Positions 479-39,951 of a stretch of 64,000 nt of DNA are shown piece after piece (position 1 is the first letter of the stretch; each line of letters begins with the position of its first letter). Below the pieces are notes generated by a model, which made no database searches, had not been told where the DNA came from, and was given only the letters and a program-made list of their open reading frames with translations. The position numbers and the translations under genes are program-made. This DNA comes from Patescibacteria group bacterium (GTDB lineage Bacteria > Patescibacteriota > Minisyncoccia > Phycocordibacterales > UBA918), in NCBI GenBank assembly GCA_038065355.1, contig JBBTRC010000005.1, positions 30,530 to 94,529 of the forward strand, given 5' to 3'.

Positions 479-2233
479 TTATTTGCGACGATCGGTTAAT
501 TTTTTAACGTCCATAATTTCCTTCTCAACGGCCTGTTCGGAAGTCTGGAGAGCCTTGTCAAAATGCTCGAGCATCGCCATTTCAACTTTTGACAATTTCT
601 TAGTCTTTCTGGTCTCAGTCAGCGATGTCTCATATTCACGAAGTTTCTGCTGAAGCGCGTTGAATTCACGATGCAAAATTTCGAGCGCCTCGGTTGATTC
701 GGCTCCGACTTTGGTCCTAAACCGTCGCCAGGACAGGTAGAGTAACCAGAAACCGAGCACCAATAACGCGATGAGACCGAGGAGCGGAATAACTACCGAG
801 AGTACGTTGATGAGAAGTGATCCAATACGTATAAAGCCAGACTGTTGAACGGCAATCCTAATAACTTCAGAACGTTCGCTCTTGGCCCCATAGCTATCGG
901 TTGCGATAGCGGAAAGTTCGTAGACGCCGAGCGAAAAGCGGGCTTCGGGAATGAAAGTAAATGTACCGTGTTCGTCGCTTTGTACTGTATACAGTGAGAC
1001 GGCGTTACCAATTTTTTGCAGTGAGACTTCGACCGTTGCACCGGGTTTTGTTTTACCTTTTATGACCGGAATGACTGTTTCGCTTACTTCAGTCGGGTAT
1101 TCGGTGAATACGGGCCTAGCGAAGGCTTCAATAGTAAGCGCGTACGTAGCGATAAGGCTGTTGGCGGCACGGTCAAATGCTTCGATGATCACCGTGTGAT
1201 AGCCGGGCAAAAGCGATGGCAACGCGATGGTATTTGAGGCGTTTTTGTCTATAAATTCAAATGGTTCCGCTGCGTCAATTTTGACCAGGTAGCGGCCTAT
1301 TCCTGAGGTGACATCGACTACCTTGAGCTTCAAAGTTGGCTGTGGATTACCTAGGTCGGAATTTTCCGTCGATTCGATGGTGAAAGAGATTGGCTTTTCC
1401 GTATCAACAGCCATTTTATAGTGAGTTACTTTTCCCCAGCCATCAGCATTTCTAAATTGGATGTGAAAATAAGAAGCTCCTTCCGGCAAGTCAGGCAGTG
1501 AAATTGAAGAAATTGGCTCATCATATACTTTGGTAGGAATAGTGCTCGGAGATTGATCGAGTAGAGTTCGGACGCTCGTCACTCCGCTTGGGACATTCCA
1601 GGTTAGCTCAGCAGTCTTTTGTGCATACCAGGCGTTTGTATCTGCGTGCGTGGTTGAAACGACTTGCGGTGCGGCCGGGGTATTGGCCGGCGCTACGTAT
1701 TCGATTACTTCAGGCGTCGGCGCTATCGTGGCCGCTTGAATCGTGTAACTGCCGCCATTCATGGCAGTAAGCACATTCGTGCCTTTGCCGTCATTAGCCA
1801 GGACCGAACCACCGGTAAAGGAAACCCGGGGTGCTCCCGCACCGGCCGCTCGGAACGTGATGGTCATAATGGCACCGGCACTGCCGGTGTAGCCAGTCGG
1901 CGATCCGCCGCTAAAACTGATAGTTCCGGCACTGTTTGAAAATGTTGGCTCGGTAACCCAGAGGTTGAATATCGAACTCGACCGACTGACGGCAGTGACC
2001 GAGAGTTCTCGCGGGTTAAAGCTTAACGTACCGTCAGCGGCATTCACCGCTTGCCCGTTCGTGTTTACCATCACTCGTACAGAAAATGTACCGTTTGCTT
2101 GGTACACCCCAGTGGCTGGAGAAAGTGATAAGGTCGCGGCTTCGGCCGACGAAGCCAGCGAAAAAGTAAAAAACAGTAGCGCAAAAGCAAAAAATAATTT
2201 TTTGATGGGTAGTTGTGTAAAATAGCTAGTCAT
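479..2233 (-). CDS. Scaffoldin-like membrane protein. Signal peptide, N-terminal cohesin-like domain, Ig-like region, single TM helix, cytoplasmic coiled-coil tail. Paralog of 30818..32356.
   Basis: 584-aa ORF. Cohesin-like signature SIFNLWVTEPTFSNSAGTISFSGGSPTGYTGSAGAIMTITFRA. TM LLGLIALLVLGFWLLYL followed by a heptad-rich charged tail. Collinear similarity to the 512-aa ORF at 30818..32356. Confidence 0.75.
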   Translation of the reverse strand: MTSYFTQLPIKKLFFAFALLFFTFSLASSAEAATLSLSPATGVYQANGTFSVRVMVNTNGQAVNAADGTLSFNPRELSVTAVSRSSSIFNLWVTEPTFSNSAGTISFSGGSPTGYTGSAGAIMTITFRAAGAGAPRVSFTGGSVLANDGKGTNVLTAMNGGSYTIQAATIAPTPEVIEYVAPANTPAAPQVVSTTHADTNAWYAQKTAELTWNVPSGVTSVRTLLDQSPSTIPTKVYDEPISSISLPDLPEGASYFHIQFRNADGWGKVTHYKMAVDTEKPISFTIESTENSDLGNPQPTLKLKVVDVTSGIGRYLVKIDAAEPFEFIDKNASNTIALPSLLPGYHTVIIEAFDRAANSLIATYALTIEAFARPVFTEYPTEVSETVIPVIKGKTKPGATVEVSLQKIGNAVSLYTVQSDEHGTFTFIPEARFSLGVYELSAIATDSYGAKSERSEVIRIAVQQSGFIRIGSLLINVLSVVIPLLGLIALLVLGFWLLYLSWRRFRTKVGAESTEALEILHREFNALQQKLREYETSLTETRKTKKLSKVEMAMLEHFDKALQTSEQAVEKEIMDVKKLTDRRK

Positions 2234-3284
2234 ATAGAGAAGTGGGTGTTTCTATTTCTTTGTTCATTTCTTCCTCCTCGGGCGTAGCCAACCTCTTCCG
2301 ACGTCGGATGACATGCGTGACAACGATGCCGCCCACGACGAGCAACATGACCACCAAGAGAGCCAACACTCCGTTAAGAATCTGTACTGTAGCAATACCA
2401 CGCATGCTTGAATCCGGCACCAGGGTTGCAATGTATTCGTTCCCGGCCTTATCAAGCGCCCGTACACGGATAATGCTGTTGAGCGATTGGTCTTTGAGCA
2501 CGTAGGGACTGCGGGCAGTTATCCATGGTGCATCGGCGCGGCCCCAGATGAAGGTGCCAAATTCAGCTAGTGGCTGTTCTATTACTTGGTACTGGTCGAC
2601 GCCGGTTTGTTTGTCGGTGGTGTTAAACACAATGTAGTGTTTGCCTCCAAACGCCAACGTGTCCTTTTCGAGAGCGATACTAAACTCTTCCGGCGGCCTA
2701 ACGTCAGCCTGGACTGCTTCACGCCACGGGTCTTCCAACACCGCACCAGCTTTTTTTGTGAGCGCTATGGTCGCGCCGTAGACGGTGGGAGCCACCACAG
2801 TACCTTGCCCGTCGTTTAAATAGGCCGATGTAGCAGGATCAAAGTCAATATGAGCCACTGCGTCGTTCTCTCCACCAATAGCAAAGCCGGGTGATCTAAA
2901 AATTATGTTGATGAGATTATTGGTGAGGCGCGGGTCGCCTGAAATGCGACCGCAGTAACCATTTGGAATTCCGCCGGCAAAAGTGATAGTGCGTTTGTCC
3001 TTGTTAATGATGGGGTTTTCAACCCAGACATTAAAAATCGAATCTCCGATGGAGATATCAATCGGCACGACATTTTCGGTGTAAGTAATGACGGCGTCAA
3101 TCGCGTTCACGCATTCTTGTGCCGCCTCATCAACATCGAGCCGAACCGCGAGTGTGATGGCATCGCCGCGGTTGATCTCGCTGTGACCCGGGTCTATATA
3201 CAGAGACGCGGCAGTGGCCGAAAACGGCACAGCAACGCTACAAAAAAACAGCCCGAGGATAGCAATTCCTAACTTCCCTTTCAT
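2226..3284 (-). CDS. Secreted cohesin-like domain protein with C-terminal TM anchor and basic RRRKR tail.
   Basis: 352-aa ORF. Signal peptide. Motif IFNVWVENPIINKDKRTITFAGGIPNGYCG resembles the cohesin-like domains of 479..2233 and 30818..32356. C-terminal LALLVVMLLVVGGIVV + RRRKR. Overlaps the downstream gene by 8 nt. Confidence 0.7.
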   Translation of the reverse strand: MKGKLGIAILGLFFCSVAVPFSATAASLYIDPGHSEINRGDAITLAVRLDVDEAAQECVNAIDAVITYTENVVPIDISIGDSIFNVWVENPIINKDKRTITFAGGIPNGYCGRISGDPRLTNNLINIIFRSPGFAIGGENDAVAHIDFDPATSAYLNDGQGTVVAPTVYGATIALTKKAGAVLEDPWREAVQADVRPPEEFSIALEKDTLAFGGKHYIVFNTTDKQTGVDQYQVIEQPLAEFGTFIWGRADAPWITARSPYVLKDQSLNSIIRVRALDKAGNEYIATLVPDSSMRGIATVQILNGVLALLVVMLLVVGGIVVTHVIRRRKRLATPEEEEMNKEIETPTSLYD

Positions 3285-3398: not shown

Positions 3399-4556
3399 TT
3401 AGAAAACTGGTGTTGCTACGTATGTCAACGTAGCTGTGTAGTCGCTAGCTGCTTCCTGCAAGCCGCCAATTTCTACTTTGTAACCGACACGAGTGGTTCC
3501 TTCTCCCTGTCCGGTGCCATCAGCGGGACCGGTGTGCCGAAACACTTCAACTGGTGACGTGAGAGCCGCAACAAAGCGATCCCCGCCGCTACCTACGTTG
3601 AAAGGATTGGTAAGTCCACTCGTGAGAGTGTCGTCATCTGAAGCAACGCCCCAGTGACCGTACGTATCTTCATCTCCGAGAGTCTCAGATGGCGCTTCCC
3701 AAGCAACGGCAACAGTATCTCCGTTACCGTTTCGGAACGAATCGATATCGGCACCATTGGTTGAGCTGAGTTGCTGGTCTGTGACTACCGTGACGACGAA
3801 ACCGTTGCGGGCGTTCGTTGTCACCGCGAGATCTTGAGCGGCAGTACTGGCTGTGTTGGCAGACAGTTCACCAAACGGAATTGTGGTGGCCGTTGTGGCA
3901 CCTCCGGTCGTGTCAGCTGTGTTGACTGCTTGGCCGCTTGTGACTCCACTCACTGTAAAAGTAAAGATGGTGTCGACAGAAGCGGTAACAGTCACTGAGC
4001 TAAGAATCATGACACGAGTTGAACCCGTGTCTGATGCTCCGGCTGTTGCGTTGATCTCATACGAACCAGCGGCAGGGTTGGTGAGCTGTGCGTTACCAGC
4101 ACCTCCTGAAGTGGCGTTGAGGCCAATTTCAATGGTGGTGGTACCGTTCGTTGGAATCGAGCCTCCGTCACCTGCACAAAACGTGATGGTGAGAGTCGTT
4201 CCTGAAAACGCTGCACTCGCTTGTTCCGAACCCGTACAATCAGCCGCTAACGTGAAATCTGAGGTGGTCGCAACGTCAATGTCGGTGTCATTCACTGAAC
4301 CAACGACGAATGGACCATCTGCAAAATCAAGTGTTATGGTTGACCCGTTTGCTACTCCGGTCGGAGTGGTAAACACGATGGTATGGTCTGACGCAACAGT
4401 CGGCGCTGAATCCGAAAGTGTGTCGCTAAAAGAGCTGACATTAGCAGCTTCCGCAAAGCGGAGTGACGGTAAACCTACTGACCAAAGAAAGATGGCGAGG
4501 CCCACAATCGCTGCTGTGGCTTGGAGCACGGAGAACGTTTGTGACGTTCTGTGCAT
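3399..4556 (-). CDS. Secreted Thr/Gly/Ser-rich beta-rich protein, 385 aa, monocistronic. Paralog of 36482..37636. Candidate major surface structural subunit.
   Basis: Signal peptide. Central ~170 aa near-identical to the 36482..37636 product (SDHTIVFTTPTGVANG...AADCTG...AAFSGTTLTITFCAGDGGSIP). Both end ...TLTY(V/I)ATP(V/T)F. Own hairpin downstream. Confidence 0.7.
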   Translation of the reverse strand: MHRTSQTFSVLQATAAIVGLAIFLWSVGLPSLRFAEAANVSSFSDTLSDSAPTVASDHTIVFTTPTGVANGSTITLDFADGPFVVGSVNDTDIDVATTSDFTLAADCTGSEQASAAFSGTTLTITFCAGDGGSIPTNGTTTIEIGLNATSGGAGNAQLTNPAAGSYEINATAGASDTGSTRVMILSSVTVTASVDTIFTFTVSGVTSGQAVNTADTTGGATTATTIPFGELSANTASTAAQDLAVTTNARNGFVVTVVTDQQLSSTNGADIDSFRNGNGDTVAVAWEAPSETLGDEDTYGHWGVASDDDTLTSGLTNPFNVGSGGDRFVAALTSPVEVFRHTGPADGTGQGEGTTRVGYKVEIGGLQEAASDYTATLTYVATPVF

Positions 4557-4844: not shown

Positions 4845-5978
4845 TTATCCGCTCCAATTAAAAAGAAGAATCGAGAAGTCCTCAAGACTCACCCGACCGT
4901 TCCCGTTAATGTCAGCCGGGGGGTCTGAGTCTCCGCCATTGGTTTGCCACCAAAAAATCAAAATTGAAAAGTCGGTAAGATTAATTTTGCCATCGCGATT
5001 CAAGTCAGAGGGTGTAGTCGCACGACCTTCTATGCCCACAAAAAGCTGCAGGGAGCTGCTGAAACTACTTTGTGACGTGAGTGGCGGCGTACCGGCCACC
5101 GTGCGGGCGCGGAGTGTGTGTTCAGCTATGGATAACTGACTGGTGTTTAGACTAATGCTCCAGCTACCGTTAGCCGCCACGCTGGTTCGCTCAATGACGG
5201 TGCTGTTGTCGACATGTAGCTCAAGGGTGGTGTTGGGAACAGACTGACCAGATACAGTGACAGCCGCTCCTGGAATCACATTTGGGTTCGTGACTCGTAT
5301 CGTAGGCGGTAACAGCACGCCGTTAATATTCGTAATGGCGCCTTGCGTCACATCAAAAGTAGTATTGAGGGTGATCGACCGCGTGCCGCTCGTGTCGGTT
5401 GACCACACTCCAAGGGTGGCAGTTCCGGGCGATGCTTCAGCAGCGAACTCAAACGCGCCGCTACTGTTTGACTGTACTGAGCCGACAGATTCAGTGTCAA
5501 TTAAAAAATTTACAGTTCGCGACGGATAGGCTCTTCCGATAACGTTAATTTGGGTGTCTCCAAGATCACGATTACTACCACCGCCGCCGCCAGAGGAGCC
5601 GCCCGAGGAGCCGCCGCCGCCCGAACCGGCCGGCTCGACTTCACAAATTGCCGAGCAGAAGTCACCGTCGGTGTTGTTACCGTCGTCACATTCTTCTTGG
5701 TGAATTGTTTGCAAAATTCCGTCGCCGCAGTAAGGTCCAAATAAACACGAAACGGTGCACTGCCTACCGGCTATGGTTTGGCTATACACTCCGGTTTCGC
5801 CCGGCACGTCACATTGCTCACCGGGATCAACAATGATATTGCCACAAACACTTAAAGTGAGAGTGGTAGTAGCGGTAAACTGTGCCGCTACCGGTGTGGG
5901 CGTAAAGACTCCTAGCGCGTAAACGCACACCAGGGCTACCACCGCAGAGAATGTACAAAAAATGCTAACCTTTCCCAT
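4845..5978 (-). CDS. Secreted dockerin-containing protein with Myxococcus-type cysteine-rich repeats, a Gly/Ser linker and Ig-like repeats. Paralogous C-terminal region to 32919..34814.
   Basis: 377-aa ORF. Signal peptide. Cys-rich repeats (CGNIIVDPGEQCD...CGDGILQ...EECDDGNNTDGDFCSAIC). Linker GGGGSSGGSSGGGGGS. C-terminal duplicated dockerin-type segment DLNRDGKINLTDFSILIFWW...DINGNGRVSLEDFSILLFNW. Confidence 0.75.
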   Translation of the reverse strand: MGKVSIFCTFSAVVALVCVYALGVFTPTPVAAQFTATTTLTLSVCGNIIVDPGEQCDVPGETGVYSQTIAGRQCTVSCLFGPYCGDGILQTIHQEECDDGNNTDGDFCSAICEVEPAGSGGGGSSGGSSGGGGGSNRDLGDTQINVIGRAYPSRTVNFLIDTESVGSVQSNSSGAFEFAAEASPGTATLGVWSTDTSGTRSITLNTTFDVTQGAITNINGVLLPPTIRVTNPNVIPGAAVTVSGQSVPNTTLELHVDNSTVIERTSVAANGSWSISLNTSQLSIAEHTLRARTVAGTPPLTSQSSFSSSLQLFVGIEGRATTPSDLNRDGKINLTDFSILIFWWQTNGGDSDPPADINGNGRVSLEDFSILLFNWSG

Positions 5979-6924
5979 GACGCTTTCGTCGGCGTATGTG
6001 TAGGAAGTAGAGAATCACAATAAGCAGTGAGAAAATCGGCAACAAGACTGAAACTTTGTGCGCGAGTGAAAGCCCAATAAAGCCGAAGCTTGCGACCTGC
6101 AGCGTACCCTCCGGCAAAATACTAAGGCTAAGGTCGCCCTCCTGTTTTATATCTTCCCCATTAAGAATTCGATATCGTGCAATGTAGCTGTCAGCGGGCA
6201 GACGAGTCGGTAATTCGGCCAATACCTCACCGGTCGCGTATGGCGCTATCGGTTTCATTTTGCCAATGTTTTTTGTCTCCTCAAGTAGTACTTTGCCAGT
6301 CCGATCATAAATACGAAAATCCACTTTCGAAGGTGCAATATCGACGTTGCCAGTGTTTTCCACTAACATTTTAAAGCGGATTTTTCCGGGGAAAAATAAC
6401 CACCCGAGCTTGTGCCCTTCGTTTAAATCATCAACGGCCACTTTTCTAATGCGAAAATCTTTTATCTGTTTATCAATGACTGACAACTCAATGTCAACGA
6501 GTGCGCCGAGAGAAATACTCACCGCGCCTATTGCCACTTGTCCGTCCTCCGGCACCGTGCGAATGCGAATCGAACCTTCGTATTCCTTAAACTCAGCATC
6601 AGACGGCACGGTGACCCGTACTGTCATAGGTACCTTTTGTTCACCTCGCGGCAAGGAAATATTTTCACCCTCAACTATTTCTATCCAGGATTCAATTTCT
6701 GGAGCGTCGATGGTGATCTCCGCTTTTTGCGCCACATCAGGGTCACCGCGTACCAGGAGAATTTGCTGTTCATACACTGAGTTGCGAGTCAGGCTGGTGT
6801 TCTTCACATACGGCGGTGTAATACCAAAACCAGCAAAAACATCAGTCACGCCGGCACTGAAAAAAAACACTGGTACCAGCATAGAGACCACACACAGCTG
6901 TCGCGCTAACCCGCCCATGGACAA
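5965..6924 (-). CDS. Tail-anchored cell-surface protein: signal peptide, beta-rich ectodomain, C-terminal TM and RRRKRHGKG tail. Paralogous architecture to 35286..36356.
   Basis: 319-aa ORF. N-terminal signal LVPVFFFSAGVTDVFA. C-terminal LLPIFSLLIVILYFLHI + RRRKR. Overlaps the dockerin gene start by 14 nt. Confidence 0.65.
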   Translation of the reverse strand: MSMGGLARQLCVVSMLVPVFFFSAGVTDVFAGFGITPPYVKNTSLTRNSVYEQQILLVRGDPDVAQKAEITIDAPEIESWIEIVEGENISLPRGEQKVPMTVRVTVPSDAEFKEYEGSIRIRTVPEDGQVAIGAVSISLGALVDIELSVIDKQIKDFRIRKVAVDDLNEGHKLGWLFFPGKIRFKMLVENTGNVDIAPSKVDFRIYDRTGKVLLEETKNIGKMKPIAPYATGEVLAELPTRLPADSYIARYRILNGEDIKQEGDLSLSILPEGTLQVASFGFIGLSLAHKVSVLLPIFSLLIVILYFLHIRRRKRHGKG

Positions 6925-7014: not shown

Positions 7015-8889
7015 TTACCAGTCGGTCGCTTCGGCCGTGACCGCGTAGAAAGTGTTGAGTCCTTGGTAGCTACCAGCGAGCGTGATGGAGATTGGTACGG
7101 AGATACCCCAGTAGGTCACTCCCGAACTTGGAGTTGAAGTGCTCGTTGTTTTGGCGACATCAAGTTCGACTTCTTGCACCGTTGATGAGGAAAGGATAAT
7201 AGCAAGCGGGCTGTTGTATGCCAGTGAGGTCGAGGCGAATTGTTGTTCGCTTTCAGGAATAGTTGAAGTAGCTGAGGGTGCGCATTCACTGCCAATGGCA
7301 AACGTACCGCACATTGATTCACCTTCAACTTCCTGGTCAAGCCCAGTGTTACCCACTGATAAGACAGAGGTAGTTGCGCTGAGCGTGCCGGTGTCGTCAC
7401 CTGGTTCAAGAGACCCGTACGGAATTTGAGCGGTGAGCAAATCAAGCGCAGTGAAACTAATCAGTTCAACCGGGTTGGTAGTCGTGGCCATTGAACTAGT
7501 CGCAAAGTCATCATCTGCCCCAGCTATTCCGACAGACCAGTTATCAGCCGCAAACGCCGCTGGCGTTTCGGGTGCCGCGTCGGTTGGGTCAGCTACGAAC
7601 CATAATGGGAACGTACAAGTATAGTCGAGTTGGTCGACGAATGGGCTGGTGCACTGCGTGCTCGAGGCAGTACAGCTTAAGTTCCAGGTTGTTGTTGCAA
7701 GGCCATTCGGGTAACAATAATTTGGATTATACGAACCAGCCGCGCCGGTACAGGTAGTGGTGCCGTAACTTGATCTGAACACAGATACTACGTAATCGGT
7801 AATCTCTGAACTTGAAGCGGAGGTCAGACAGCTGTTCGCATCACGAACGGTGAAGTCAAGTGTAAAGCCGGTTGTCTCGGCTCCCTCCTGAGTCAACGTA
7901 ATGTTTGAACCACTATTAAGGCTTATATCGCCGCCGAGGACAACCGGCGCAACGTTATTGACGGTGAAGTTTGATTGGTCGGGGTTAGCTAACGCTTCGT
8001 GTCCATGTTCGTCGATAATATAGCCGTAGGCTGGGTAGGGTGCGTCGCGCAAGATTGAAGCCAGCGTGTATGCCGCGTCTGCGTCAGCCGCCACACCGAC
8101 GGTGGTCGAGGCTAAGAAAGCAGATCCGCAAGAGTTGGTGGTAGGGTTGTAGCTGGTGTTGTCACTACAGACAATTAGATATATGTCATCCTCTCCCCCG
8201 ACGGAATCAGGGTCAGTTGAAGTTGAATTAAAGGTCACGATATCCCCGGGATCCTTCGGGCCGTCGTTCCAGACATTAGTCAAGACCGGGCGACTATTGA
8301 CGTTGAACGGTGACGAATTTGTCGCGCTGAAGCCCTGCACTGGCGTTGCATTACAGCGAGGATTGAATGGATCGTCGTCGCAGACCCAGGCGTACCAAGT
8401 GTTGAGTTCTGCGAAAGGTGCTACTTCTGCGGTAGTGGTAGAGACGCTGGCCAGCGCGCCGCTCGCGGCCGCCGTTGAAACTCCCCATTGTGTACCGCCA
8501 CCACAATCAGGCGGAGCGGTGCCTAGGTTGCCCGGACCAGCGGCCGCGTTGGCGGTCGGAGTGGCATTCGAACTACAAACAAGAAGGAAATACGGGGCGC
8601 CGTTACTGTCTGTGGCCACCGCCGCGAACTGGATGGCGGTACCAGAATTAGTGGGTGATGAAGTTGAGGATTCCACCACCTCATAGGCATCGGTTGTAAA
8701 GAAAGGCGGTGTGTTAAGCACCGTGAGCGTCGTCGTGGCCGACTGCGCTGACACCTTACTCAACTGCTGCGTTCCGGCATCAAATATGAAAGCCACCAAA
8801 AACACCGCCAAACCTACAACGGCGGTGAAGATGGTTATTTTTCCAGCGGTCTTTAGGTAGCGCGACTGCTCTTCTTTGTTATACAACAT
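7015..8889 (-). CDS. N-terminally anchored Thr/Ser/Cys-rich surface protein, 624 aa. Ends with the same YWGIxVP...QGxNxF motif as the 5531-aa giant protein.
   Basis: N-terminal TM ITIFTAVVGLAVFLVAFIF. Cys-rich mid region. C-terminus TSTPSSGVTYWGISVPISITLAGSYQGLNTFYAV aligns with the giant protein C-terminus. Confidence 0.65.
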   Translation of the reverse strand: MLYNKEEQSRYLKTAGKITIFTAVVGLAVFLVAFIFDAGTQQLSKVSAQSATTTLTVLNTPPFFTTDAYEVVESSTSSPTNSGTAIQFAAVATDSNGAPYFLLVCSSNATPTANAAAGPGNLGTAPPDCGGGTQWGVSTAAASGALASVSTTTAEVAPFAELNTWYAWVCDDDPFNPRCNATPVQGFSATNSSPFNVNSRPVLTNVWNDGPKDPGDIVTFNSTSTDPDSVGGEDDIYLIVCSDNTSYNPTTNSCGSAFLASTTVGVAADADAAYTLASILRDAPYPAYGYIIDEHGHEALANPDQSNFTVNNVAPVVLGGDISLNSGSNITLTQEGAETTGFTLDFTVRDANSCLTSASSSEITDYVVSVFRSSYGTTTCTGAAGSYNPNYCYPNGLATTTWNLSCTASSTQCTSPFVDQLDYTCTFPLWFVADPTDAAPETPAAFAADNWSVGIAGADDDFATSSMATTTNPVELISFTALDLLTAQIPYGSLEPGDDTGTLSATTSVLSVGNTGLDQEVEGESMCGTFAIGSECAPSATSTIPESEQQFASTSLAYNSPLAIILSSSTVQEVELDVAKTTSTSTPSSGVTYWGISVPISITLAGSYQGLNTFYAVTAEATDW

Positions 8890-8966: not shown

Positions 8967-10190
8967 CTATTCATACCGAATCGCGTCCAGCGGATTGAGA
9001 GATCCGGCACGGCGAGCTGGGAAAATGCCGGTGAGGTAGCCAACGGCGGCGGAGAAAAGTGCGATAAAAAGAAGAAAATCAAGCGGGAACGAAAACAGTG
9101 CCACCGCTTGACCGCCAAATTGACTGGCCAAGACGTTAAGAAAAAGGTTCACCGTCACCCCTAAGGTGACGCCGAGCACAATGCCGCTTAGCCCGCCAAG
9201 AAAACCAACAACGATCGACTCGGAAACGAACAAATTTTTTACATCGTTCGGTGACGCGCCGATGGTGCGCATGATGCCGATTTCTTTGGTACGTTCGAGC
9301 AGTGTCACCGTCATGGTGTTAAACATGCCAATCGCGGACACAACGAGCGCAATGCCACCAAACGTGGCGAGTACCACTTGTATTCCTTGAAAAATCTTGG
9401 AGGCCTGTTCGACGGTCTTTGACAACGCGGTAACGCGGTACCCCTTCTCAATCAGCCAATCTTCAACTGTTGCTAAATTTTCATTCGAATCAACGCGCAC
9501 TTGGATGCGCTCAAATTCTTCTATACCGACGTAATTGCGAAGTTCTGGTAGCATCATCATCACATTGAGTACACCTTCTTCTTTAGTAATGCCGCGTACG
9601 GTGTATTCTTTGTCGATCACAATTTCGTTCACAGCGTCGGTCCCGTCATCGGCCGGCACAAGGAGTCGAAACGACACTTTTTGTCCAATGAACGCATCCA
9701 TTTCTTCGTCAGTAATTCCGAACAATTTTAAAATTGCTGGAGACAGCATAACTGAATTCACATCCCCCGCGTCAGCGTCGGTGAACACCTCTCCGGCGAT
9801 AGCAGTCACGCCGGCGTAGCGAAGATACGGCGGTTCGACTCCCTGCACAAAGACGTTTCCAGTGAGACCCTTGTAGGTGACAAGCGCAGGAAAGCGCGCC
9901 AAGGGTGCCGCATCGAGTACCGCTTCGTTGTTTTCAAATTCGGTAATGGTTTCTGGAGTAAGTCGCAGACCTTGCGCGCCGGTTGAGGAAACGCCGAGTG
10001 AAAGCAGAGTCTCTCCAAAGACAATCTGCTCAAGAATAATTTTTTGCAGGCCGAACCCGAGCCCCACCAAGACAACGACCGCACCGGTGCCGACACCCAT
10101 ACCCAAAATCGTCAACCACGTACGCATCGGGTTGGTTTTGAACATACGCGTCGAAAGCTGTGCCAAGTCTTGCACTCTCACACCAACCAT
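8967..10190 (-). CDS. ABC transporter permease, MacB/FtsX family: N-terminal TM, large extracytoplasmic domain, C-terminal FtsX-type three-TM bundle.
   Basis: 407-aa ORF. Topology and C-terminal region (LATFGGIALVVSAIGMFNTMTVTLLERTKEIGIMRTIGASPNDV) are typical of MacB/LolE-type permeases. Confidence 0.8.
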   Translation of the reverse strand: MVGVRVQDLAQLSTRMFKTNPMRTWLTILGMGVGTGAVVVLVGLGFGLQKIILEQIVFGETLLSLGVSSTGAQGLRLTPETITEFENNEAVLDAAPLARFPALVTYKGLTGNVFVQGVEPPYLRYAGVTAIAGEVFTDADAGDVNSVMLSPAILKLFGITDEEMDAFIGQKVSFRLLVPADDGTDAVNEIVIDKEYTVRGITKEEGVLNVMMMLPELRNYVGIEEFERIQVRVDSNENLATVEDWLIEKGYRVTALSKTVEQASKIFQGIQVVLATFGGIALVVSAIGMFNTMTVTLLERTKEIGIMRTIGASPNDVKNLFVSESIVVGFLGGLSGIVLGVTLGVTVNLFLNVLASQFGGQAVALFSFPLDFLLFIALFSAAVGYLTGIFPARRAGSLNPLDAIRYE

Positions 10191-10210
10191 TATGGCACAT
10201 GCACGATACC

Positions 10211-11533
10211 TTAACTCTTGTAACTCACATCAACTCCCTGTGCGATTACTTTCTCGAAGTAGCGCGTGATATCGTCTGCCTCTTTCTCATCGAGGCCAAG
10301 ACCGCCCGCCCGTACCCCCTTCATCAATCGTTCATTAAATTCTTCATCCTCAATCACACCGGTCACCCGATCAGCAATCAGCTCGGTAAGATTTTCATCC
10401 TGCTCTTTGTTGAGCTTTACTCGGTGTTGTTGGATCAAGTGTTCGCGTAGTCGTTCTGACAATTTGTGCTGACTAAAAAAGATACCGTCGTTGTCTTTGC
10501 GCGCTCTGAATCGCTTGATATCAAGTGCATTCTCCATCATACGACCGGCGATGGTAGCCATTTTGCGCGCTTCTGCCTCCGGCACCTCGACGCCGCCTTT
10601 TTCTAAAGGCAAGACGAGACTTTTTATGTAAGCGTCGCGGTCGATTTTTCCTTTGATAAACATACCCGAAGCGCGCTCCAGCCGGATCAGCTGGTCGAAA
10701 GTGTAGTCTTGCGTCAAATAGTTGACTAAGCTCTTCACTCGGAGCGTGTCCACTGAGTCGTAGGGGTACAGTCGAGCCAGTTGTTCGAGCTCGGTGACGA
10801 TCGTCTCACCTTCCTGCACTGGCTTGATTTGCTTGCGCTGTGGGTTGACGACTTCACGAACGATGAGGCCGTCCTTGAGGTAGTAGACTCGGTGCGCATA
10901 GCTCAAGTGAGCGGCGTTGTGTGACACCATAATGATAGTACGGCGATCGAAGGTGTTGATTTCATCAATTTTATCCATCACTTGCTGTGTCGAAACAGAG
11001 TCAAGGTTGCCAGTTGGTTCGTCTGCGAGAAGAATCTTGGGGTCGTTTACCATCGAACGCGCCACCGACACGCGTTGTTGTTGACCGCCGGAGAGCATAG
11101 CGGGGATTTTATGCGAAACATGCCCCACGCCAAAACGATCGAGAAGCATCTGGGCGCGACGTTCTCTGGTAGTTTTGTCTACGTCGCAAAAAATCATCGG
11201 TAGCGCTACGTTGTCGAGCACCGAGAGCGATTGAATCAGGTTGAATGACTGAAAAATAATTCCCATCACGAAGCGCTGGAAATACACACGCTCGGCCGGC
11301 GGGTACGAATAGATATCGTCACCACGAATGAGGAGCGTGCCCTCGCCAGGCGGAAGTGAGCCTTGAATGGAATACATGAGGGTCGACTTGCCCGAGCCTG
11401 ATGCGCCGAAAAGAATGATGTACTCACCCTCAAAAATATCAGTGTTCACGCCCGTGAGCGCTTTAAATTCGTTCGACTTCCCCTTATTGTAGATAATCGA
11501 AAGATCCCGACAGACGATAAGCGGCTTGGCCAT
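10211..11533 (-). CDS. ABC transporter ATP-binding protein, MacB/LolD-like, with an unusual ~200-aa C-terminal extension of unknown function.
   Basis: Walker A GASGSGKST, ABC signature LSGGQQQRVSVARS and Walker B ILLADEPTGNLD, all within residues ~20-240. Residues ~240-440 carry no recognisable motif. Confidence 0.85.
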   Translation of the reverse strand: MAKPLIVCRDLSIIYNKGKSNEFKALTGVNTDIFEGEYIILFGASGSGKSTLMYSIQGSLPPGEGTLLIRGDDIYSYPPAERVYFQRFVMGIIFQSFNLIQSLSVLDNVALPMIFCDVDKTTRERRAQMLLDRFGVGHVSHKIPAMLSGGQQQRVSVARSMVNDPKILLADEPTGNLDSVSTQQVMDKIDEINTFDRRTIIMVSHNAAHLSYAHRVYYLKDGLIVREVVNPQRKQIKPVQEGETIVTELEQLARLYPYDSVDTLRVKSLVNYLTQDYTFDQLIRLERASGMFIKGKIDRDAYIKSLVLPLEKGGVEVPEAEARKMATIAGRMMENALDIKRFRARKDNDGIFFSQHKLSERLREHLIQQHRVKLNKEQDENLTELIADRVTGVIEDEEFNERLMKGVRAGGLGLDEKEADDITRYFEKVIAQGVDVSYKS

Positions 11534-14108: not shown

Positions 14109-17100
14109 TTATGGGCCAACCGGCGTAAAGACGTTCTGACCTTGGTGCGGAGCGCTGTTGACGCCAAATGGAACAGCAATGCCCCAGTACACGGTGTCTG
14201 CAACCGGCGGCGTCGTGGTTGTTGGCTTAGACAGATCGACGTTGAGAACTACCGGGGTGGTACTAGAGAGCAAGTTACAGCTGGCACCACAGCCGGAATA
14301 CGTGAAGGTTGAAGTGGCAAACTTCTGCTTTGTCGACGGGATGGTGGAGCTGTAGCCGTCGGTCATGTCGGTACCTTCAACTTCGATATTTATTTCAACG
14401 TTACCTTGGTTTTCAATCGAGGTGGTGGCATTCACCGAGCCGGTGTCTTCCGTTACGGCGACCGAGCCGTAATCTATCGCGCCGTCAATATCAATCGCGC
14501 GCAGTGTATTGAGTTCTTGTCCAATGGATGTTCCAAAATCATAACCACCGCCGGTGTCTTCCACCTCAAGGAACGCAAACCACTCCTCGCCGTCGTAGGC
14601 ACTGCCAGTATCGGTTGGGTCGGCGTGGAAGTAAATATCAGCTTGGCAAGACACGGTGCAACTGTCGCCGGCGCAATCGGTAAATGTACAAGCCGAGCCA
14701 CCGACGCTGTAACAGTTGTTGTTATCGACAGCACAGCTTGCCCCTCCTACGACGCCGCCGCGGTAGAACGTACCGGTAGCGTGAGAGAGGTCAGTGTAGC
14801 CGTTGAGATCCGTTACGGTACCGGTCGCTACGACCGCTGTGGTGGTGCCAGGAAGCAAAGAGATCGCCTCGCCGTTGTTGAGAGTAATGCTGTCAACTAT
14901 CGGGTCAAAGCGAAGGGACATTTTTGCTACTTGCAAGTATGTATCATAGAACGTACCGTTGTCAGTGACGCGGAAACAGAGATTTTCATCAATCACATTG
15001 GATGTTGGCGTGATGACATATTCGAGTTCGGTGTATTCATTTTGGTCAACATCAATGGCACTCGTGGTATTGGAAGGATCTTCGCGCACCTCGCCGGCAG
15101 TGAAGGCGCCTTCGGCATTGACGAGAAGATCGGCAACGCTTGCGCTGTCTGTCACATTATTGGAAGTCTGCATACAGACAGCCGAAGTACCACAGCTGGC
15201 TTGTGGTGGCACCGGAGCGTAGTCTGCTTCATCGACGGCTTCGCAACTCGGCGCGGTATCCTGGGACGCAAATTCAAGCCGAAATTCTTGACCGCCAATT
15301 GCCAGTCCGCTGTTTTCAACGACTACACGTAGGCGCGCCGTGTCGGTCACACTGAAGGTCGCGGCGGTGTTTTGTGCTGCGGCGAAGGATGCTCCTCCAT
15401 CAGCCTGTTCGGCTCCAAAGAGTATGGTTGGTTCGGTCGCGAGGGTCGGTCGTGAGCTAAAGCTGTCAAAGCCTCCTTGATTAAACCAGTAAGTGAAACC
15501 GATACCGCCCGACGTGTACGAGCTGTCAGTCGCCGAGGTGGTCGCGACAAGTGAATGAGAAGCGTCGTAGAGTGATAGGAAGAGTGTATCGTCGGTACCC
15601 CAATCGAGTTCAAACTCATACCAACCGGTAGTGAAAGATACATCGGCGGTCGCGAGTGTGGCGCCAGATGATTCATTTTCAGTTACATCTTCCACGACTG
15701 CGATATGGTCAGTGCCAGGCAACTCAACACAGACCGCGTAGTTGTCGTTTGGCACGTTGGTACCTTGAACGGCAAATTTTGTACATGTCTCGTCGGAAGT
15801 GCCAGCCGTGTCGACGTACTGCCAAAAGCGAATTGTTTCTCCCTGACTGACGGTTTGACCAAATCTGTAAATACCGCCGAGATTCGCTCGACCAGTGGTG
15901 TTGCCGCTGTTGTCGAGACCATAGGTGCCGTCGTAGGCAAACGAGGTGCCTGTGTTGAAAAGACTTGTCTGTCCGCTGTATTCCGAAATATCATCATCTT
16001 CAAAGTCGTCGGCCGCTATAAACACGTCGGTGCTTGAACTGGTAGTGGTAGCGGTTGGGTTGTTGTAATACATGTAGACAGTTGCGGTTTCCTCGGCCGG
16101 TAGTGTCGCAACTTGTACCCACACTTCAGCGATCGTGCTCGCGGTCGTGGAGCCGATCCAGAACGGAAGAGTGGTAGTACCGCTCTCATCGGTAAAGCGA
16201 AGATCGCCAAAATCAGCTTGCATGTCGGAGTCATATTCCACGTACAATTGCACTGCAGCGTTGGTGTAGTTCGTGGCATCAGCGTTTACGACTCGCACTT
16301 GTTTCCGTGCGTTCCAGGCCGCGTCATACCACTCGCTGTCAGGCACTCCCAGTCCGCCGTCGTCATTCCGCCAACGGTAGCCTGTCTGCTGGGTGAGGAG
16401 ACAAGCACTGTCGCTCCAGCGCACCGACCCGCAGTCATCAACTCCGTCGACATCAAAGGCTTCACCGTCGAGGTTACCGGTATGGCTGACAAACGTCCAG
16501 GCGTTGCTGGTTGAACCAGTCATAGTGATGTTCGCTCCACTAATAGCAGTGGTGGTGGCGAAGCGGTTGCCGGTGTGGACCATCGACGCGTTGGCGTTTA
16601 GTGTCGTTGAGGAAAGCGTGAGCAAGGTGCCGCCGTCTACCGCGAGTTCAAAATCTCCGTATGAAAGAGAAGTAATGGCTGGAGTGCCGGATAGTGAAAG
16701 TCCGTTGGCACCAAGATTTCGAAAGATATAACGCTGTGCATTCAGCGTACCACCCGCCACATTGACACTGTAAGTACCACTGCCTTGATTGGTGATGGTG
16801 GTTTCATTTCCACTCTCGCCAACAACTGCCAACGAACCGCTCAAAAGTGTAGTTGTAGCATTCGCTTCGTGTTGCACTGTGACCACTCGCTCGCTACCAA
16901 GAAGACTCACACCATCGAAGTCGGTGGCATAGCTCCAATATTCAGAAGTGGTACCGATAGTGAAGTCGCCATAAATATTCAACGCTCCGTCGACCGCATT
17001 GTGATCTTGAGAGTAGAGCGAGGCGTTCGCCGCGACGGTTGAAGTCGCTCTCGAGTTCCACATGCGAATGTCACTGGCGGCACCGATAGTGAGGCCGTCG

Positions 17101-20100
17101 TACACGTCGCCGCCCGTAGTTTTGGTGTTGAGCGAATAGGCGTTCGCACCATCAAGGGCTAGAGCACTGCCAGTCCAAGTCGTCGCGGCTCCGCCGACAC
17201 TGTTTAAGAACACACCTTCCACTTTTAATGTAGCTCCAGACTGTAAAGTGAAGCTACTCGCGCTCGCCAACGTAAAGTTGTTGGTAGTCGTCGCGGAAGC
17301 CGCCAGCGTGTAGCCCCCGGTCGGTGCACCAATTTGCACGTTGTAGAACGAACTCACGCCTGGATCAATGAATTCCCCACTATCGGAAGAGTTGAACAAC
17401 ACAGTATTTGAAGCGTGAGAGAAGGTGCCGCCACTCGCATCAAAACTGCCGCCGACAGACAGTGTGCCTGATGCCAGCGTGACGTTTCCGTCGGTAATAA
17501 AGACGCTGTCGAGGAAGGTAATATCTTCATCAAGCATGGTGTAAGCGCCTCCGCCAGCGAAGTTGACCGCGTAGAGGTCGGAGCTCGATGCCAAGAGTGT
17601 GGCCGTGGTGGCGTTGATGAGTTTCAAGTCAGCGGTGTTGTGGATGATAGACCCACCAGTATTTGCGAAGTCACCGCCGACAGTGAGACGGCCAGACGGT
17701 AGAGTGATGGTACCGCTTTCGACGGTAAAGACACCGGTCGTGGTGGCGTTGGTGTCGCCCCAGGTGTAGGCGGCGCCGGAAAATGTGACGCCGGCTAGAT
17801 CAGATCCCCCTTCTGTCACAATGCCTGATCCGGTAAAGAGCGCGTGGCCACCATTGGCATCAAAGGTGCCTCCAGTCTGTACCAGCGATCCGGCAAAAGT
17901 AGATGTGCCGATCGGGAACGTGAGTGCACCCGCACTTTTACGCAGATTGCCATCTACGGTGAGCGTGTTGTCCGAAATAACCCAACTTCCCGAACCAGTA
18001 AAATCAAGATGGTGAAAAGAGTGTTCATTCACGTCGATAGTTCGAGCGGCGCCGGTTGTGGTAAACGTCGTCGTGCCATTGCTACTGACAAAATCGGCGT
18101 TGTTACCAAGAATCATACTGCCGCCGACACTGAGAGTTTCTGTACCTTGTCCAGTCCAGAGCGCATCAGCGTGAAGCTCAAGTGTTCCGTCATAGTCGGC
18201 TCCGGCGCCACCGCCAGCCACCGTTACGTTTCCACTCGGCGCAAATTCTTTGGCGTCCCACACAATGAGTTTTCGATTGGCCGGCAAGATGAGTGTGTCG
18301 GTACCGGCATTGACGGCGGTGAATGGAATATCTGCGTCGTCTCCAGAGTCCCATACCGCGAGATCGGCAATGGTAATAGGGTTCACGTTTTCATGGCGCA
18401 CAATCACTCGATTTTCGTAGATATCCAAATCGCCAATGTTTGAGATTGGTTCTTTGGTCACAGTGGCACCCTCTGACGAAGTGCCGCTTATGTACACGAC
18501 AAGTGAGTCGGTGGTACCGTACGAGACATTGGAAATACTGTACGCGCCGGTCGTTGCGTTGCAACTAGCGGTGTACGACGTGATACCGGCCACTGTAAGC
18601 ACGATCACGTTGCTACTGCCGTCGCACACATTTGAAACGGTCGTTCCTTCGTCGCTGTAGACTGCGCCCGCGACCGTGATGAGTGCGGCTGAGTCATCCC
18701 ACGCCACATAACCTGGGTCTCCGCCCGGATCAACGTCATTGGCTTCTCCGTCAATGTCACCGTAGTGATTGGCAAAGCGCCACGCACTGACCGTCGTGCC
18801 GGTGGCGGTGACATTGAATGCACTGCCGACGCCATCGAGTGCAAAGCGGTTTTGTGTGAAGTTCTTGGCTGGGTTATTGGTGATGACCGAGCCGCCGACC
18901 GTTATCGCCGAACCACCGGTTTGCGATACTCCGAAATCCCCGTTTGAAAGTGTAGTCACCTGTGGCAAACCAGTGAAGATGATTCCGTCACTGCCCGTAT
19001 CGCGCACTTCGTAATAGCGAAGCGACGTTGAGGCGGTGCCGCCGATGGTGAGGGCATACGTGCCAGCACCTTGATTTTGTAAGGTCGTTGATGCCGACGA
19101 AACTCCGTAGACTGCGAGCGCGCCGCCGGTGTAGAGCGCGCTAGCTCCAGGGGCAAAGTACACATCAGTTTGGCGCTCGCTACCACTAAGATTAGTACCG
19201 TCAAAATCAGTGCTGTAACTCCAATGATCGGTACCGGTTGATTTTCGGTAAGCTCCCCAAATGTACAGATCACCATTTTGCGCCCCGTGATCTTGCGAGT
19301 AAAGCGACGCAGTGCTTTCTACATCATACGTACCAGCACTCGAGTTCCACATGCGAATTTGTGTGGTGTCGCCAATCGACAAAGTGTCGTAGGAATCGGT
19401 GGTAGTCGCGGTGTTGATACTGTAGTTACCACCGCCATAGAGACGCAAGGTGGCGCCAGTCCAGGTAGTGGCGGCTCCTCCTTCATCATTTACAAAGGTG
19501 CCACCAACCGCCAACACTTGCCCACTACCGGCGGTGAAAGTGTTGGCATTTAGCAGTCTCCAGGCGACGGTCGCAGTGGCGTGCTCGGTTATGGTAATGT
19601 CACCAGTCGTGTTTATGACGACATTGCCAAAACTACTCGTACCGGCGGCAATTATTTGCGTACCCGCGCCGTCAAATGTGAGCGTGCCATTGTTGCTCGT
19701 GAACACACCGTTATTTTCGTAATTGCCAGCCACCGTGAAGCTTGCAGTATCGCTCGCGCCGAGAGTACCATTGCTTTCGATGAAAACATCTCCATTCACA
19801 TCAAGCGCCGGATCACTGGTCGAGAGGTTAAAAGTCGTAGCGGCCGCACCGCCGATAGAAAGGTCATTGTCGACGATGATGCCAAGACCAGTGGCGGTGT
19901 AGGTAGGTGAACCAACAGCAGCGTTTAGTTCTAAATTATAGTACCGAGTTGAAAGCACGTTAGCCCCAGCGCCACTGTAGCGAATAGTGCTGGTGTCTTC
20001 TAAGAGTGTGCCGTTCTCAATAAATACTGTGCCCGTACCGGCTAAATCCCAAGCAGTACCACCGGCGTCGAGGAAGTGAGCGGGAGCGATAGTAAGTCGC

Positions 20101-32381: not shown

Positions 32382-32855
32382 TTATTCTTTTTGAGACACC
32401 GTTCCCTTGGTGCCTCGAGTGACTTTTAATTTTACTTTCTCCTTCTCACCCGGCTTCAGCAATGGAAGAATGAGGATGAGAACACCATTTTTAATTTTTG
32501 CTTCGGCTTTCTCAATGTTGACACTTTCCGGCAGAATAATGCGCCGGTAAAAATCTCCCCACACGCACTCTTCTGCAACGAACGCTCCTTTGACTTTGGT
32601 TTTGGGGAACACGATGTACTCCGGCCGCACACGCTTTCCTTCGATGAGGACAATGTCAGCGTCACCCTCAATCGAGACGTGCACATCGTTCATATCAGCA
32701 CCAGCAGATTGTGCGTACACGACAATCATGTGTTCATTTTGGAACACATCGACGTGTAGTTGCGCCACTTTATCAACCGCGGTTTCTTCCGCATCTGATT
32801 GTAGCGATTCGCCGGATCGAACTCCCCTCCCCTTAAGCCGCTGCAGAAAAGACAT
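32382..32855 (-). CDS. Small heat-shock protein, Hsp20/alpha-crystallin family.
   Basis: 157-aa ORF with alpha-crystallin domain hallmarks (HVDVFQNEHMIVVYA...GDFYRRIILPESVNIEKAEAKIKNGVLILILP). Confidence 0.8.
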   Translation of the reverse strand: MSFLQRLKGRGVRSGESLQSDAEETAVDKVAQLHVDVFQNEHMIVVYAQSAGADMNDVHVSIEGDADIVLIEGKRVRPEYIVFPKTKVKGAFVAEECVWGDFYRRIILPESVNIEKAEAKIKNGVLILILPLLKPGEKEKVKLKVTRGTKGTVSQKE

Positions 32856-34858: not shown

Positions 34859-35260
34859 TTACACAGTTACGGCGTTTCTTTCTTCGCGCGAGCGCAAGTA
34901 GTCTAGCGTATAGTTCAACAAAATGAGCACCAGCAAAATAAACAAGATACTGGCAAGGACGTAGGTTGAGTAATTTTCACTTCCCCCAGAGCCAAGCCCG
35001 ATGTTGAGCTCGCGTTCTTTGAGCGCCGCCTCGCGAGCGTCAAGTTCCCGCTTTTGCGCGGTAAGCTCGGCCGTGAGCTGATTTAATTCGGTCGGCGCAA
35101 CACTGGCACCTACCCCAATGACACTTGCCACATAAGACTGCGTACCATGAGAAAGTACGGCAGTGCGGCTAAACAGAAGTCCGCTATCAAACACGAGTAC
35201 CAGCGCCAGCACGAGCGCGCCTACACGAAGCAATTTATGATAGTGCGTGTGTTCCATCAC
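34859..35260 (-). CDS. Small two-TM membrane protein with an intervening coiled-coil segment; unknown function.
   Basis: 133-aa ORF. Hydrophobic segments LRVGALVLALVLVF and LASILFILLVLILL. Heptad-like LTAELTAQKRELDAREAALKERE. Confidence 0.5.
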   Translation of the reverse strand: MMEHTHYHKLLRVGALVLALVLVFDSGLLFSRTAVLSHGTQSYVASVIGVGASVAPTELNQLTAELTAQKRELDAREAALKERELNIGLGSGGSENYSTYVLASILFILLVLILLNYTLDYLRSREERNAVTV

Positions 35261-39178: not shown

Positions 39179-39294
39179 CATGATCAAGTATATCATTTTA
39201 CTACTTTATTGCTTTTTATAGTTTTTGTGATATAGTACTAACGTCTGAGCGCTCTCCATTGTGGAGGCAGGATAGACATACGAAGGAGATGACA

Positions 39295-39864: not shown

Positions 39865-39893
39865 TCTTTCGGGCTTTTGCTCACAAAATAATT

Positions 39894-39925
39894 GCCGCCG
39901 ACGGTTCCCGTCGGCGGCATTTTTT
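39894..39925. terminator. Bidirectional rho-independent terminator (gccgccgacgg-ttcc-cgtcggcggc, flanked by A-run and T-run) between convergent genes.
   Basis: Perfect GC-rich inverted repeat followed by attttttaaa. Confidence 0.6.
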
Positions 39926-39951
39926 AAAGGGTTAATGCATTTTTGATTTCG

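Follow-up and report, generated by a model that had tools for sequence, protein, structure and literature searches.

A candidate cohesin-dockerin tether for pilus bases and adhesins in a conserved surface-appendage locus of Patescibacteria

Patescibacteria represent a large share of bacterial diversity and are mostly host-attached, and the way in which their appendages are built and held without an outer membrane is largely unknown. Here, a 64,000-nucleotide (nt) stretch of DNA from a Patescibacteria group bacterium (assembly GCA_038065355.1, contig JBBTRC010000005.1; “the window” below) was analyzed, in which two secreted proteins, doc377 and B_doc631, end in dockerins and are encoded close to membrane-anchored cohesin proteins, pilin-like proteins and very large surface proteins. 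Cohesin-dockerin pairs are known from cellulosomes, and non-cellulosomal cohesins and dockerins were reportedly found in all domains of life in the 2009 survey of Peer et al. Regarding appendages, Pam pili were described in 2026 from cryo-electron microscopy of a Saccharibacterium (Troman et al., bioRxiv 10.64898/2026.03.03.709456). Pam pilins consist of two domains, the inter-domain linker strand of each filling a groove in the C-domain of the next subunit, and the system includes membrane-anchored PapD-like chaperones. In the accompanying assembly model, which is AlphaFold-based and untested, the tip is formed by an acceptor-only subunit and the base by a membrane-anchored, strand-donating subunit. 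The Pam family is reported mainly in Saccharimonadia and Microgenomatia, and cohesin, dockerin and Paceibacteria are not mentioned in that paper (bioRxiv 10.64898/2026.03.03.709456).

The locus described here occupies approximately 37 kb and consists of two cassettes that are paralogous gene by gene, with all of the genes discussed on the minus strand. Each cassette encodes a pilin-like protein, a membrane-anchored two-domain protein resembling PapD and WxLIP, a dockerin protein, a cohesin anchor and a large or giant surface protein. The reading that we favor, with a probability of about 0.55, is that the cohesin and dockerin modules form a non-cellulosomal tether for pilus bases and adhesins within a conserved surface-appendage locus of Paceibacteria/Kaiserbacteria-type Patescibacteria.

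Dockerin and cohesin modules of the two cassettes

The proteins carrying the two kinds of module are as follows, the membrane topology being predicted.

479..2233, minus strand: coh584, with a signal peptide, a cohesin module (nt 1718-2140), fibronectin type III (Fn3)/immunoglobulin (Ig)-like domains (Big_13), a membrane helix (nt 749-805) and an 89-residue cytoplasmic tail (nt 482-748)
2226..3284, minus strand: coh352, with a signal peptide, a divergent cohesin-like module (nt 2745-3212), a membrane helix (nt 2316-2372) and a 29-residue tail
4845..5978, minus strand: doc377, a secreted protein of 377 aa with a signal peptide, an N-terminal strand-like segment TATTTLTLSV, Cys-rich repeats, a Gly/Ser linker, two Ig-like domains and a C-terminal dockerin
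4848..5015, minus strand: dockerin module of doc377 (residues 322-377), with two Ca-type loops of 12 residues and a helix FSIL(I/L)F after each
5631..5849, minus strand: Cys-rich acidic repeats of doc377 (residues 44-116), DUF4215 / myxo_disulf_rpt
30818..32356, minus strand: B_coh512, with a signal peptide, a cohesin module (nt 31841-32257), Ig-like domains, a membrane helix (nt 31064-31120) and an 81-residue cytoplasmic tail (nt 30821-31063)
32919..34814, minus strand: B_doc631, with a pilin-like N-domain and linker strand (nt 34179-34751), an Fn3-like domain, a Gly/Ser/Glu linker, two Ig-like domains and a dockerin (nt 32922-33089)

By Pfam criteria the C-terminal modules of doc377 and B_doc631 are members of the dockerin family, as residues 324-371 of the 377 in the former score 31.4 bits and residues 578-625 of the 631 in the latter 36.5 bits against Dockerin_1 (PF00404), the gathering score of which is 22.9 bits. 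Combined into one profile, the three dockerin types of the locus aligned over the full profile length, both loops included, with 2y3n_B, a cellulosomal dockerin of solved structure (E 3.8e-8), and also with the CelS dockerin 2mte; matches of this profile to calmodulin-type proteins covered one loop only. Searching the PDB with the single sequence of doc377 returned only weak dockerin matches. The twin-loop dockerins that the preliminary description had recognized by eye on both proteins are thus borne out, while its loop consensus is exact in three of the four loops. Both loops of B_doc631, DLNRDGRVNLTDFSIL / DINRDGRVNLTDFSIM (also given as DLNRDGRVNLTD / DINRDGRVNLTD), and loop 1 of doc377, DLNRDGKINLTDFSIL (= DLNRDGKINLTD), match it, whereas loop 2 of doc377, DINGNGRVSLEDFSIL (= DINGNGRVSLED), departs from it at four positions and retains the ligand positions D1, N3, N5 and D12. 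A helix FSI(L/M)(I/L)F follows every one of the four loops, and the two loop-plus-FSIL(I/L)F units are spaced 31 residues apart. When the twin-loop pattern was run over all six-frame open reading frames (ORFs) of the window, doc377 and B_doc631 alone were matched, each by a C-terminal pair.

The conservation of Ca-coordinating Asp/Asn residues, proposed earlier as a check, was observed among the orthologues. Both loops are retained in 117 of 120, with D, N, D, N, D in loop 1 and D, N, N, S/G, D in loop 2 (positions 1, 3, 5, 9 and 12), a count in which positions 1, 3, 5 and 12 were fixed by the search pattern itself. The dockerin is the most conserved segment of doc377, with a mean column conservation of 0.92, and the dockerins of the two cassettes are 76% identical to each other. 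At its other end doc377 does carry the Myxococcus-type Cys-rich repeats and Gly/Ser linker previously ascribed to it: the repeat scores 49.1 bits on TIGR02232 (cut-off 20.8) and 37 bits on DUF4215 (cut-off 27), it matches the equivalent repeat in pappalysin structures, and the linker reads GSGGGGSSGGSSGGGGGS. An identical copy of the 377-aa protein is present on groundwater contigs from the Hainich site, and its close relatives are found in metagenome-assembled genomes labelled Kaiserbacteria, Nomurabacteria, Paceibacteria or Parcubacteria, among 1617 homologues at E <= 0.001.

On the cohesin side, B_coh512 scores 31.1-34.8 bits against Pfam Cohesin (PF00963), above the gathering score of 24.1 bits. 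Whole-protein Pfam scans of coh584 and coh352 yielded no cohesin match; scanning of the isolated N-domains recovered Cohesin for coh584 (27.4 bits) and not for coh352. Among homologues of the coh584 N-domain, 23 of 28 match PF00963, and some are named by NCBI as cohesin domain-containing proteins; a single-sequence search of the PDB with coh584 returned nothing. For coh352 the evidence comes from the cohesin-like family profile, with which it aligns at 98.4% probability (hhalign, E 6.6e-15) and on whose hidden Markov model (HMM) it scores 73.9 bits. Run over the window, the family HMM retrieves exactly three ORFs, coh584, coh352 and B_coh512. The modules of coh584 and B_coh512 are therefore cohesin family members by Pfam criteria and coh352 is a divergent homologue, so that the cohesin signatures earlier assigned to all three ORFs hold at Pfam level for 30818-32356 and 479-2233 and at the level of the family profile for 2226-3284. 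With both families matched above their gathering scores, the profile check once proposed for the locus turns out in its favor.

Each cohesin protein possesses a signal peptide and a single C-terminal hydrophobic helix followed by K/R, leaving tails of 89 (coh584), 29 (coh352) and 81 (B_coh512) residues. By hydropathy and the positive-inside rule, all three are predicted to be single-pass membrane proteins with cytoplasmic tails, in agreement with the membrane tethering and cytoplasmic tail claimed earlier. The tails are charged and probably helical, with a heptad count of 0.5, a value uninformative on the coiled coil. The importance formerly attached to the tail gains support from the conservation of the B_coh512 tail, which is approximately 0.9 over 41 orthologues. 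A motif, K/R-LSK-E...AL..SE..(I/V)EKEI.DVK, is common to the tails of B_coh512 (30821-31063) and coh584 (482-748). Taken together, the roughly 90% conservation and the common motif suggest that the tail has an intracellular partner.

One further gene of this kind lies just beyond window position 1, the second after coh584 (L001:7325-8077). It encodes a 250-aa adaptor with a cohesin-like N-domain, which scores 75 bits on the family HMM and 19.8 bits on Pfam Cohesin, and a C-terminal dockerin, which scores 22.6 bits on the Pfam dockerin profile, just under the cut-off of 22.9. All cohesin proteins of the locus carry one cohesin each. The two long cohesins, of coh584 and B_coh512, are 54% identical, and dockerins and cohesins thus diverge in parallel between the cassettes (76% versus 54%). 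The adaptor dockerin and coh352 are more divergent than the cassette dockerins and the long cohesins, which suggests at least two cohesin-dockerin specificities.

Pilin-like proteins, the pilin-dockerin fusion and the surrounding locus

The candidate filament components are the following.

3399..4556, minus strand: pil385, pilin-like, with an N-terminal beta-sandwich domain, a linker VTVTASVDT and a C-terminal domain
5965..6924, minus strand: tm319, with a signal peptide, two beta-sandwich domains and a C-terminal membrane helix, a candidate membrane-anchored chaperone or holder
35286-36356, minus strand: B_tm356, the tm319 paralogue, with two C-terminal membrane helices by hydropathy
36482..37636, minus strand: B_pil384, the pilin-like protein of cassette B

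A relationship to the pilin-like proteins is seen in B_doc631, residues 22-212 of which align with residues 29-197 of the pilin family over the whole N-domain and linker (hhalign, 97.4%, E 1.6e-11). Within the linker, AIVEKVSVPNVDTT of B_doc631 is aligned with VAIVDxVTVTASVDT of the pilins. Past this point no pilin C-domain is present, its place being taken by the Fn3-like domain, the Gly/Ser/Glu linker, the two Ig-like domains and the dockerin. By this alignment, B_doc631 is a truncated pilin, comprising N-domain and linker strand with no acceptor domain, that is fused to Ig domains and a dockerin; hydropathy gives it no membrane anchor of its own. Lacking the C-domain, B_doc631 could donate a strand but not accept one, and a donor-only subunit would occupy the cell-proximal end of the filament in the AlphaFold-predicted Pam assembly model.

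The pilin-like proteins themselves form a family of 1073 representative clusters. Against the NCBIfam profile NF058581, CPR_Pam_pilin_C (Pam pilus system pilin subunit; cut-off 55 bits), the two proteins of the window score 22.4 and 19.2 bits, the former being B_pil384 across the whole 148-position profile. The profile is also matched by 20 of 29 orthologues (best E 1.6e-9) and 17 of 53 distant relatives, with an overall best E of 1.5e-10 and with all scores seen below the cut-off. It appears from these scores that pil384 and pil385 belong to a distant sister family of the Pam pilins and are not members by the curated rule. An AlphaFold2 model of pil384 (predicted local distance difference test score 90.3) displays two beta domains and, connecting them, an unpaired linker of 13 residues, IDNVLVTAVVNTT, in which the hydrophobic residues alternate and several positions are invariant or near-invariant in the family. 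Fold searches with this model retrieved generic Ig-like adhesins and pilins only, from a library that includes no Pam structure, and single-sequence and profile searches of PDB sequences with the pilin gave nothing useful. The linker VTVTASVDT (pil385, window 3900-4000; pil384, 37040-37085) resembles the N-terminal donor strand of CfaB in dscCfaE 2hb0 (NITVTASVDP), a resemblance that is not significant (E 0.25). One distant family member matches NCBIfam NF052521, “TafC family fimbrial protein” (E 4e-11), and in several others the pilin unit stands at the C-terminus of far longer proteins (570-1022 aa).

For tm319, the nearest folds to the predicted model are WxLIP and PapD-like chaperones, and B_tm356 reaches 23.8 bits on Pfam WxLIP_PGBD, under the gathering score of 27.3; a profile search of PDB sequences with tm319 was of no help. 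Two further candidate roles were examined. A relationship of doc377 to the pilins was rejected, and the C-terminal domain common to big624 and the giant protein (both listed below) as a pilin acceptor, that is, as a tip subunit, is unsupported (hhalign probability 1.9%; no NCBIfam match in 39 orthologues) and is kept as speculation.

The remaining genes of the locus are listed here.

7015..8889, minus strand: big624, a large Cys-rich secreted protein whose last ~240 residues are held in common with the giant ORF
8967..11533, minus strand: the gene pair that heads cassette A, a MacB/FtsX-type permease (8967-10190) and an ATP-binding cassette (ABC) ATPase extended at its C-terminus (10211-11533), matched by Pfam MacB_PCD, FtsX and ABC_tran
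14109..30704, minus strand: a giant surface protein of 5531 aa, from the ORF listing, situated between cassettes A and B
32382..32855, minus strand: an Hsp20/alpha-crystallin gene (Pfam HSP20, 39.1 bits)
34859-35260, minus strand: B_133, a small two-helix membrane protein

The paralogy of the cassettes extends through the set. Identity amounts to 61% for the pilin pair pil385/pil384, 24% for tm319 and tm356 (BLASTP E 2e-6), 41% for doc377 and doc631 across the C-terminal 244 residues that form the two Ig-like domains and the dockerin, 38% for coh584 and coh512 with the cytoplasmic tail included, and 33% for big624 and the giant ORF across 239 C-terminal residues (BLASTP E 4e-22). The giant ORF also contains a DUF2341 domain (68.6 bits) some 630-700 residues before its C-terminus; Pfam and NCBIfam scans assigned no family to big624.

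Gene order was compared for cassette A over 44 species-level genomes, counts being taken over the loci that are long enough. The order giant, ABC, FtsX, big624, tm319, doc377, pil385, coh352, coh584, 226-aa membrane protein, cohesin+dockerin adaptor and ~590-aa protein is kept in every such locus except L032, which is rearranged, and L037, from which the adaptor is absent. Both coh352 and coh584 lie downstream of doc377 in 25/25 loci and the adaptor in 23/24 related loci; big624 is kept in all loci, and the ABC/permease genes are syntenic wherever a genome locus reaches far enough upstream of the dockerin gene. In metagenome contigs, cassette B follows the order Y-family polymerase gene, pil384, tm356, 133-aa protein, doc631, Hsp20, coh512 and giant, with coh512 downstream of doc631 in 36/37 loci and the giant gene after the cohesin gene, its position in the window. 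The adjacency of dockerin and cohesin genes remarked on earlier is therefore a conserved property of both cassettes. The Hsp20 gene always stands between the dockerin and cohesin genes of cassette B, at 69-89% identity in the metagenome loci that hold the cohesin gene, so that a cytoplasmic chaperone is encoded inside a surface-protein operon. Some metagenome versions of cassette B (L098, L100, L102, L103, L133, L141 and L144) contain an additional ABC-ATPase-like gene directly upstream of the dockerin gene.

Beyond cassette B, window 37934-42731, which leads up to a sortase gene, encodes a Y-family DNA polymerase (IMS), an S24 LexA/UmuD-like peptidase, a GH18-family protein and a CAP-domain protein. 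The sortase gene (PF04203, 72 bits) adjoins that of a 1381-aa SpaA/SdrD_B-like surface protein whose C-terminal tail is hydrophobic, at 42804-47580, a separate sortase-type pair. Further along, the GC fraction falls to 0.37 at window 60001-62000, compared with ~0.50 elsewhere, and a queuosine-salvage gene is located there (60153-61124).

A proposed tether and its alternatives

The presence nearby of Pam-like pilins, PapD/WxLIP-like proteins, giant surface proteins and a MacB-type ABC transporter, together with a truncated pilin that bears a dockerin, points to the anchoring of filaments and adhesins rather than the display of enzymes. We infer the following course of events, including the binding of dockerin to cohesin, the pairing of partners, the formation and polarity of a filament and any part played by the ABC transporter, Hsp20 and the cytoplasmic tails. 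Both doc377 and B_doc631 would be exported via Sec, whereupon their Ca-loaded C-terminal dockerins would bind the single cohesin of the type-I membrane proteins coh584 and B_coh512, with coh352 and the cohesin+dockerin adaptor outside the window as possible further dockerin partners. The cargo would thus be retained on a cell that has no outer membrane, with no sortase being used for these proteins. In cassette B the cargo would be a pilus base, given that B_doc631 has the pilin N-domain and putative donor strand without the acceptor C-domain. It may cap the cell-proximal end of a Pam-like filament of pil384/pil385 and serve as the plug that joins this filament to the membrane cohesin, while tm319 and tm356 could serve as PapD/WxLIP-like holders during assembly. 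That B_doc631 has no membrane anchor of its own and that the adjacent gene encodes a membrane-anchored cohesin would be most simply explained if the dockerin-cohesin joint anchored the filament base. As adhesive cargo, the 624-aa and 5531-aa proteins are likely.

Several points weigh against the proposed tether. Binding between the modules is argued from sequence, and filaments in these organisms are a prediction from genes. The cohesin scores exceed the cut-off by just 3-10 bits, coh352 has no direct Pfam match, and the cohesin family profile reaches solved cohesins only marginally among PDB sequences (R. flavefaciens cohesins, E 0.058). PapD-like folds are common Ig variants, the C-terminal domain of big624 and the giant protein has no detectable relation to the pilin acceptor domain, and doc377 shows no similarity to the pilin family, which limits the pilus-base role to cassette B. 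Instead, doc377 could be a Cys-rich binding protein displayed on its own, or it could make use of its conserved N-terminal TATTTLTLSV segment.

The lack of pilin similarity in doc377 is also what a display scaffold, the view taken in the preliminary description, would lead one to expect if it operated without any pilus. In such an arrangement the membrane cohesins would present dockerin-tagged adhesins or binding proteins and the pilin-like genes would be unrelated neighbors; nothing in doc377 is pilin-like, the Cys-rich repeat at its head is of a kind typical for binding proteins, and the identities and synteny of cohesins and dockerins fit equally well. The complete pilin N-domain and linker inside B_doc631 speak against it, and the retention of pilin, PapD/WxLIP-like, dockerin and cohesin proteins together across dozens of genomes in both cassettes would be hard to explain if they were unrelated, so that we regard display alone as somewhat unlikely. 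It could also be argued that the two modules are not partners of each other at all, the twin loops being Ca-stabilizing EF-hand pairs, like those of many non-cellulosomal orphan dockerins, and the cohesin-like domains generic Ig-like spacers or glycan-binding domains of envelope proteins. Many genomes are said, in the work of Peer et al. from 2009, to have dockerins or cohesins without known partners, and both the single-loop matches of the dockerin profile to EF-hand proteins such as calmodulin and the near-threshold cohesin scores with their marginal structural match could be read in this way. Such an explanation becomes improbable in view of the full-length, two-loop alignment with a solved dockerin, the strict synteny (25/25 and 36/37), the occurrence of both modules on the adaptor protein and the fact that the dockerin is the most conserved segment of its protein.

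The joint might instead connect two cells, with a dockerin on a secreted protein or pilus end binding cohesins on kin or host for aggregation or attachment. An episymbiotic way of life is frequent among Patescibacteria (Troman et al., bioRxiv 10.64898/2026.03.03.709456) and the cohesins are exposed on long Ig-like stalks, which would suit this role. Both partners are, however, encoded in one operon-like cluster in every genome, and B_doc631, having no membrane anchor, needs a tether on the cell that produces it; an intercellular joint is accordingly considered highly improbable. Returning to a tether on the producing cell, a more elaborate version can be put forward only tentatively, as possible rather than probable: a donor-strand pilus of ultra-small bacteria would be held to the cytoplasmic membrane by a cohesin-dockerin joint in place of a covalent or transmembrane anchor, with the dockerin-fused truncated pilin as base cap, the conserved tail and adjacent Hsp20 linking it to the cell interior, and the adaptor and second cohesin anchor permitting modular mounting of several cargoes, including the 5531-aa adhesin. 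If the tether exists, cohesin and dockerin would serve as a plug-and-socket anchor of general use for pili and giant adhesins, and the Pam-type pilus would extend to Paceibacteria with a different anchoring solution. As the families are large and strongly conserved (the dockerin protein and its neighbor each have more than 1,500 homologues, and the pilin family has 1,073 clusters), the prediction covers a whole lineage.

Comparison with cellulosomes, WxL clusters and Pam pili

The modules share with the cellulosomal type-I pairs (Pseudobacteroides cellulosolvens Cel48 dockerin-cohesin, 2y3n; Clostridium thermocellum CelS, 1daq/2mte) the duplicated 12-residue Ca loop with its helix, the cohesin domain and the placement of the dockerin at the C-terminus of the cargo, and the adaptor next door, with cohesin and dockerin in one protein, resembles a cellulosomal adaptor scaffoldin. 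Unlike in cellulosomes, the cohesin proteins here are anchored by their own predicted membrane helix with a cytoplasmic tail and not through SLH domains or sortase, a Cys-rich protein and a truncated pilin make up the cargo, and the host is a Patescibacterium. A cellulosome was rejected, since the proteins scanned include no carbohydrate-active enzymes, no carbohydrate-binding modules and no multi-cohesin scaffoldin. Pfam detected no glycoside hydrolase, other carbohydrate-active enzyme domain or carbohydrate-binding module in the cluster proteins scanned, a scan that covered the giant ORF except for its middle ~3,500 residues, and the only parts that accompany the dockerins in their proteins are DUF4215, Ig-like and pilin-like ones. 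The qualifier “non-cellulolytic” in the preliminary description is consequently apt. Its wider term, a cellulosome-like display system, is right as to genuine modules and adjacent genes and too narrow for a pilus-like locus with one cohesin per protein and no multi-cohesin scaffoldin.

Also related are the non-cellulosomal modules of Archaeoglobus fulgidus (2xdh), the Clostridium perfringens toxin complex (2vo8/2w1n) and the Ruminococcus bromii amylosome (PMC4611034), which likewise serve outside cellulose degradation and often number one or a few per genome; the solved cohesins 2xdh, 2vo8 and 2w1n were among the fold-search matches of the pil384 model. The difference is that the modules described here have a fixed place in a conserved surface-appendage locus of 37 kb, where they are coupled to pilin-like genes, and that one dockerin is fused to a pilin fragment. 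The WxL clusters of Firmicutes (Hassan et al. 2023, PMC10599100) are without cohesin-dockerin parts, which are present here. There is here no evidence of peptidoglycan binding and no Pfam WxL domain, PF13731 not being matched by pil385, pil384 or big624 (Pfam, E <= 0.1 or 1). An Omnitrophota giant-gene preprint concerns a different system. The searchable literature yielded nothing relevant on cohesin or dockerin in Patescibacteria, and the combination of cohesin anchors with their own helix and a conserved tail, a pilin-dockerin fusion and a fixed place in a Pam-like/WxL-like appendage locus of the Candidate Phyla Radiation (CPR) was not found in it.

The likeness to Pam comprises a two-domain pilin of ~38 kDa whose inter-domain linker is conserved, two-domain membrane-anchored proteins that are candidate PapD-like chaperones, Sec-dependent components and restriction to the CPR, and in the predicted Pam base subunit, too, strand donation is combined with attachment to the membrane. 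The present locus differs in that its pilins fall below the Pam C-domain cut-off, its lineage is Paceibacteria, and it contains an ABC/FtsX transporter and giant proteins. Moreover, no PamR-like anchor with a membrane helix of its own was identified here; a pilin-dockerin fusion together with a separate membrane cohesin seems to fill that role.

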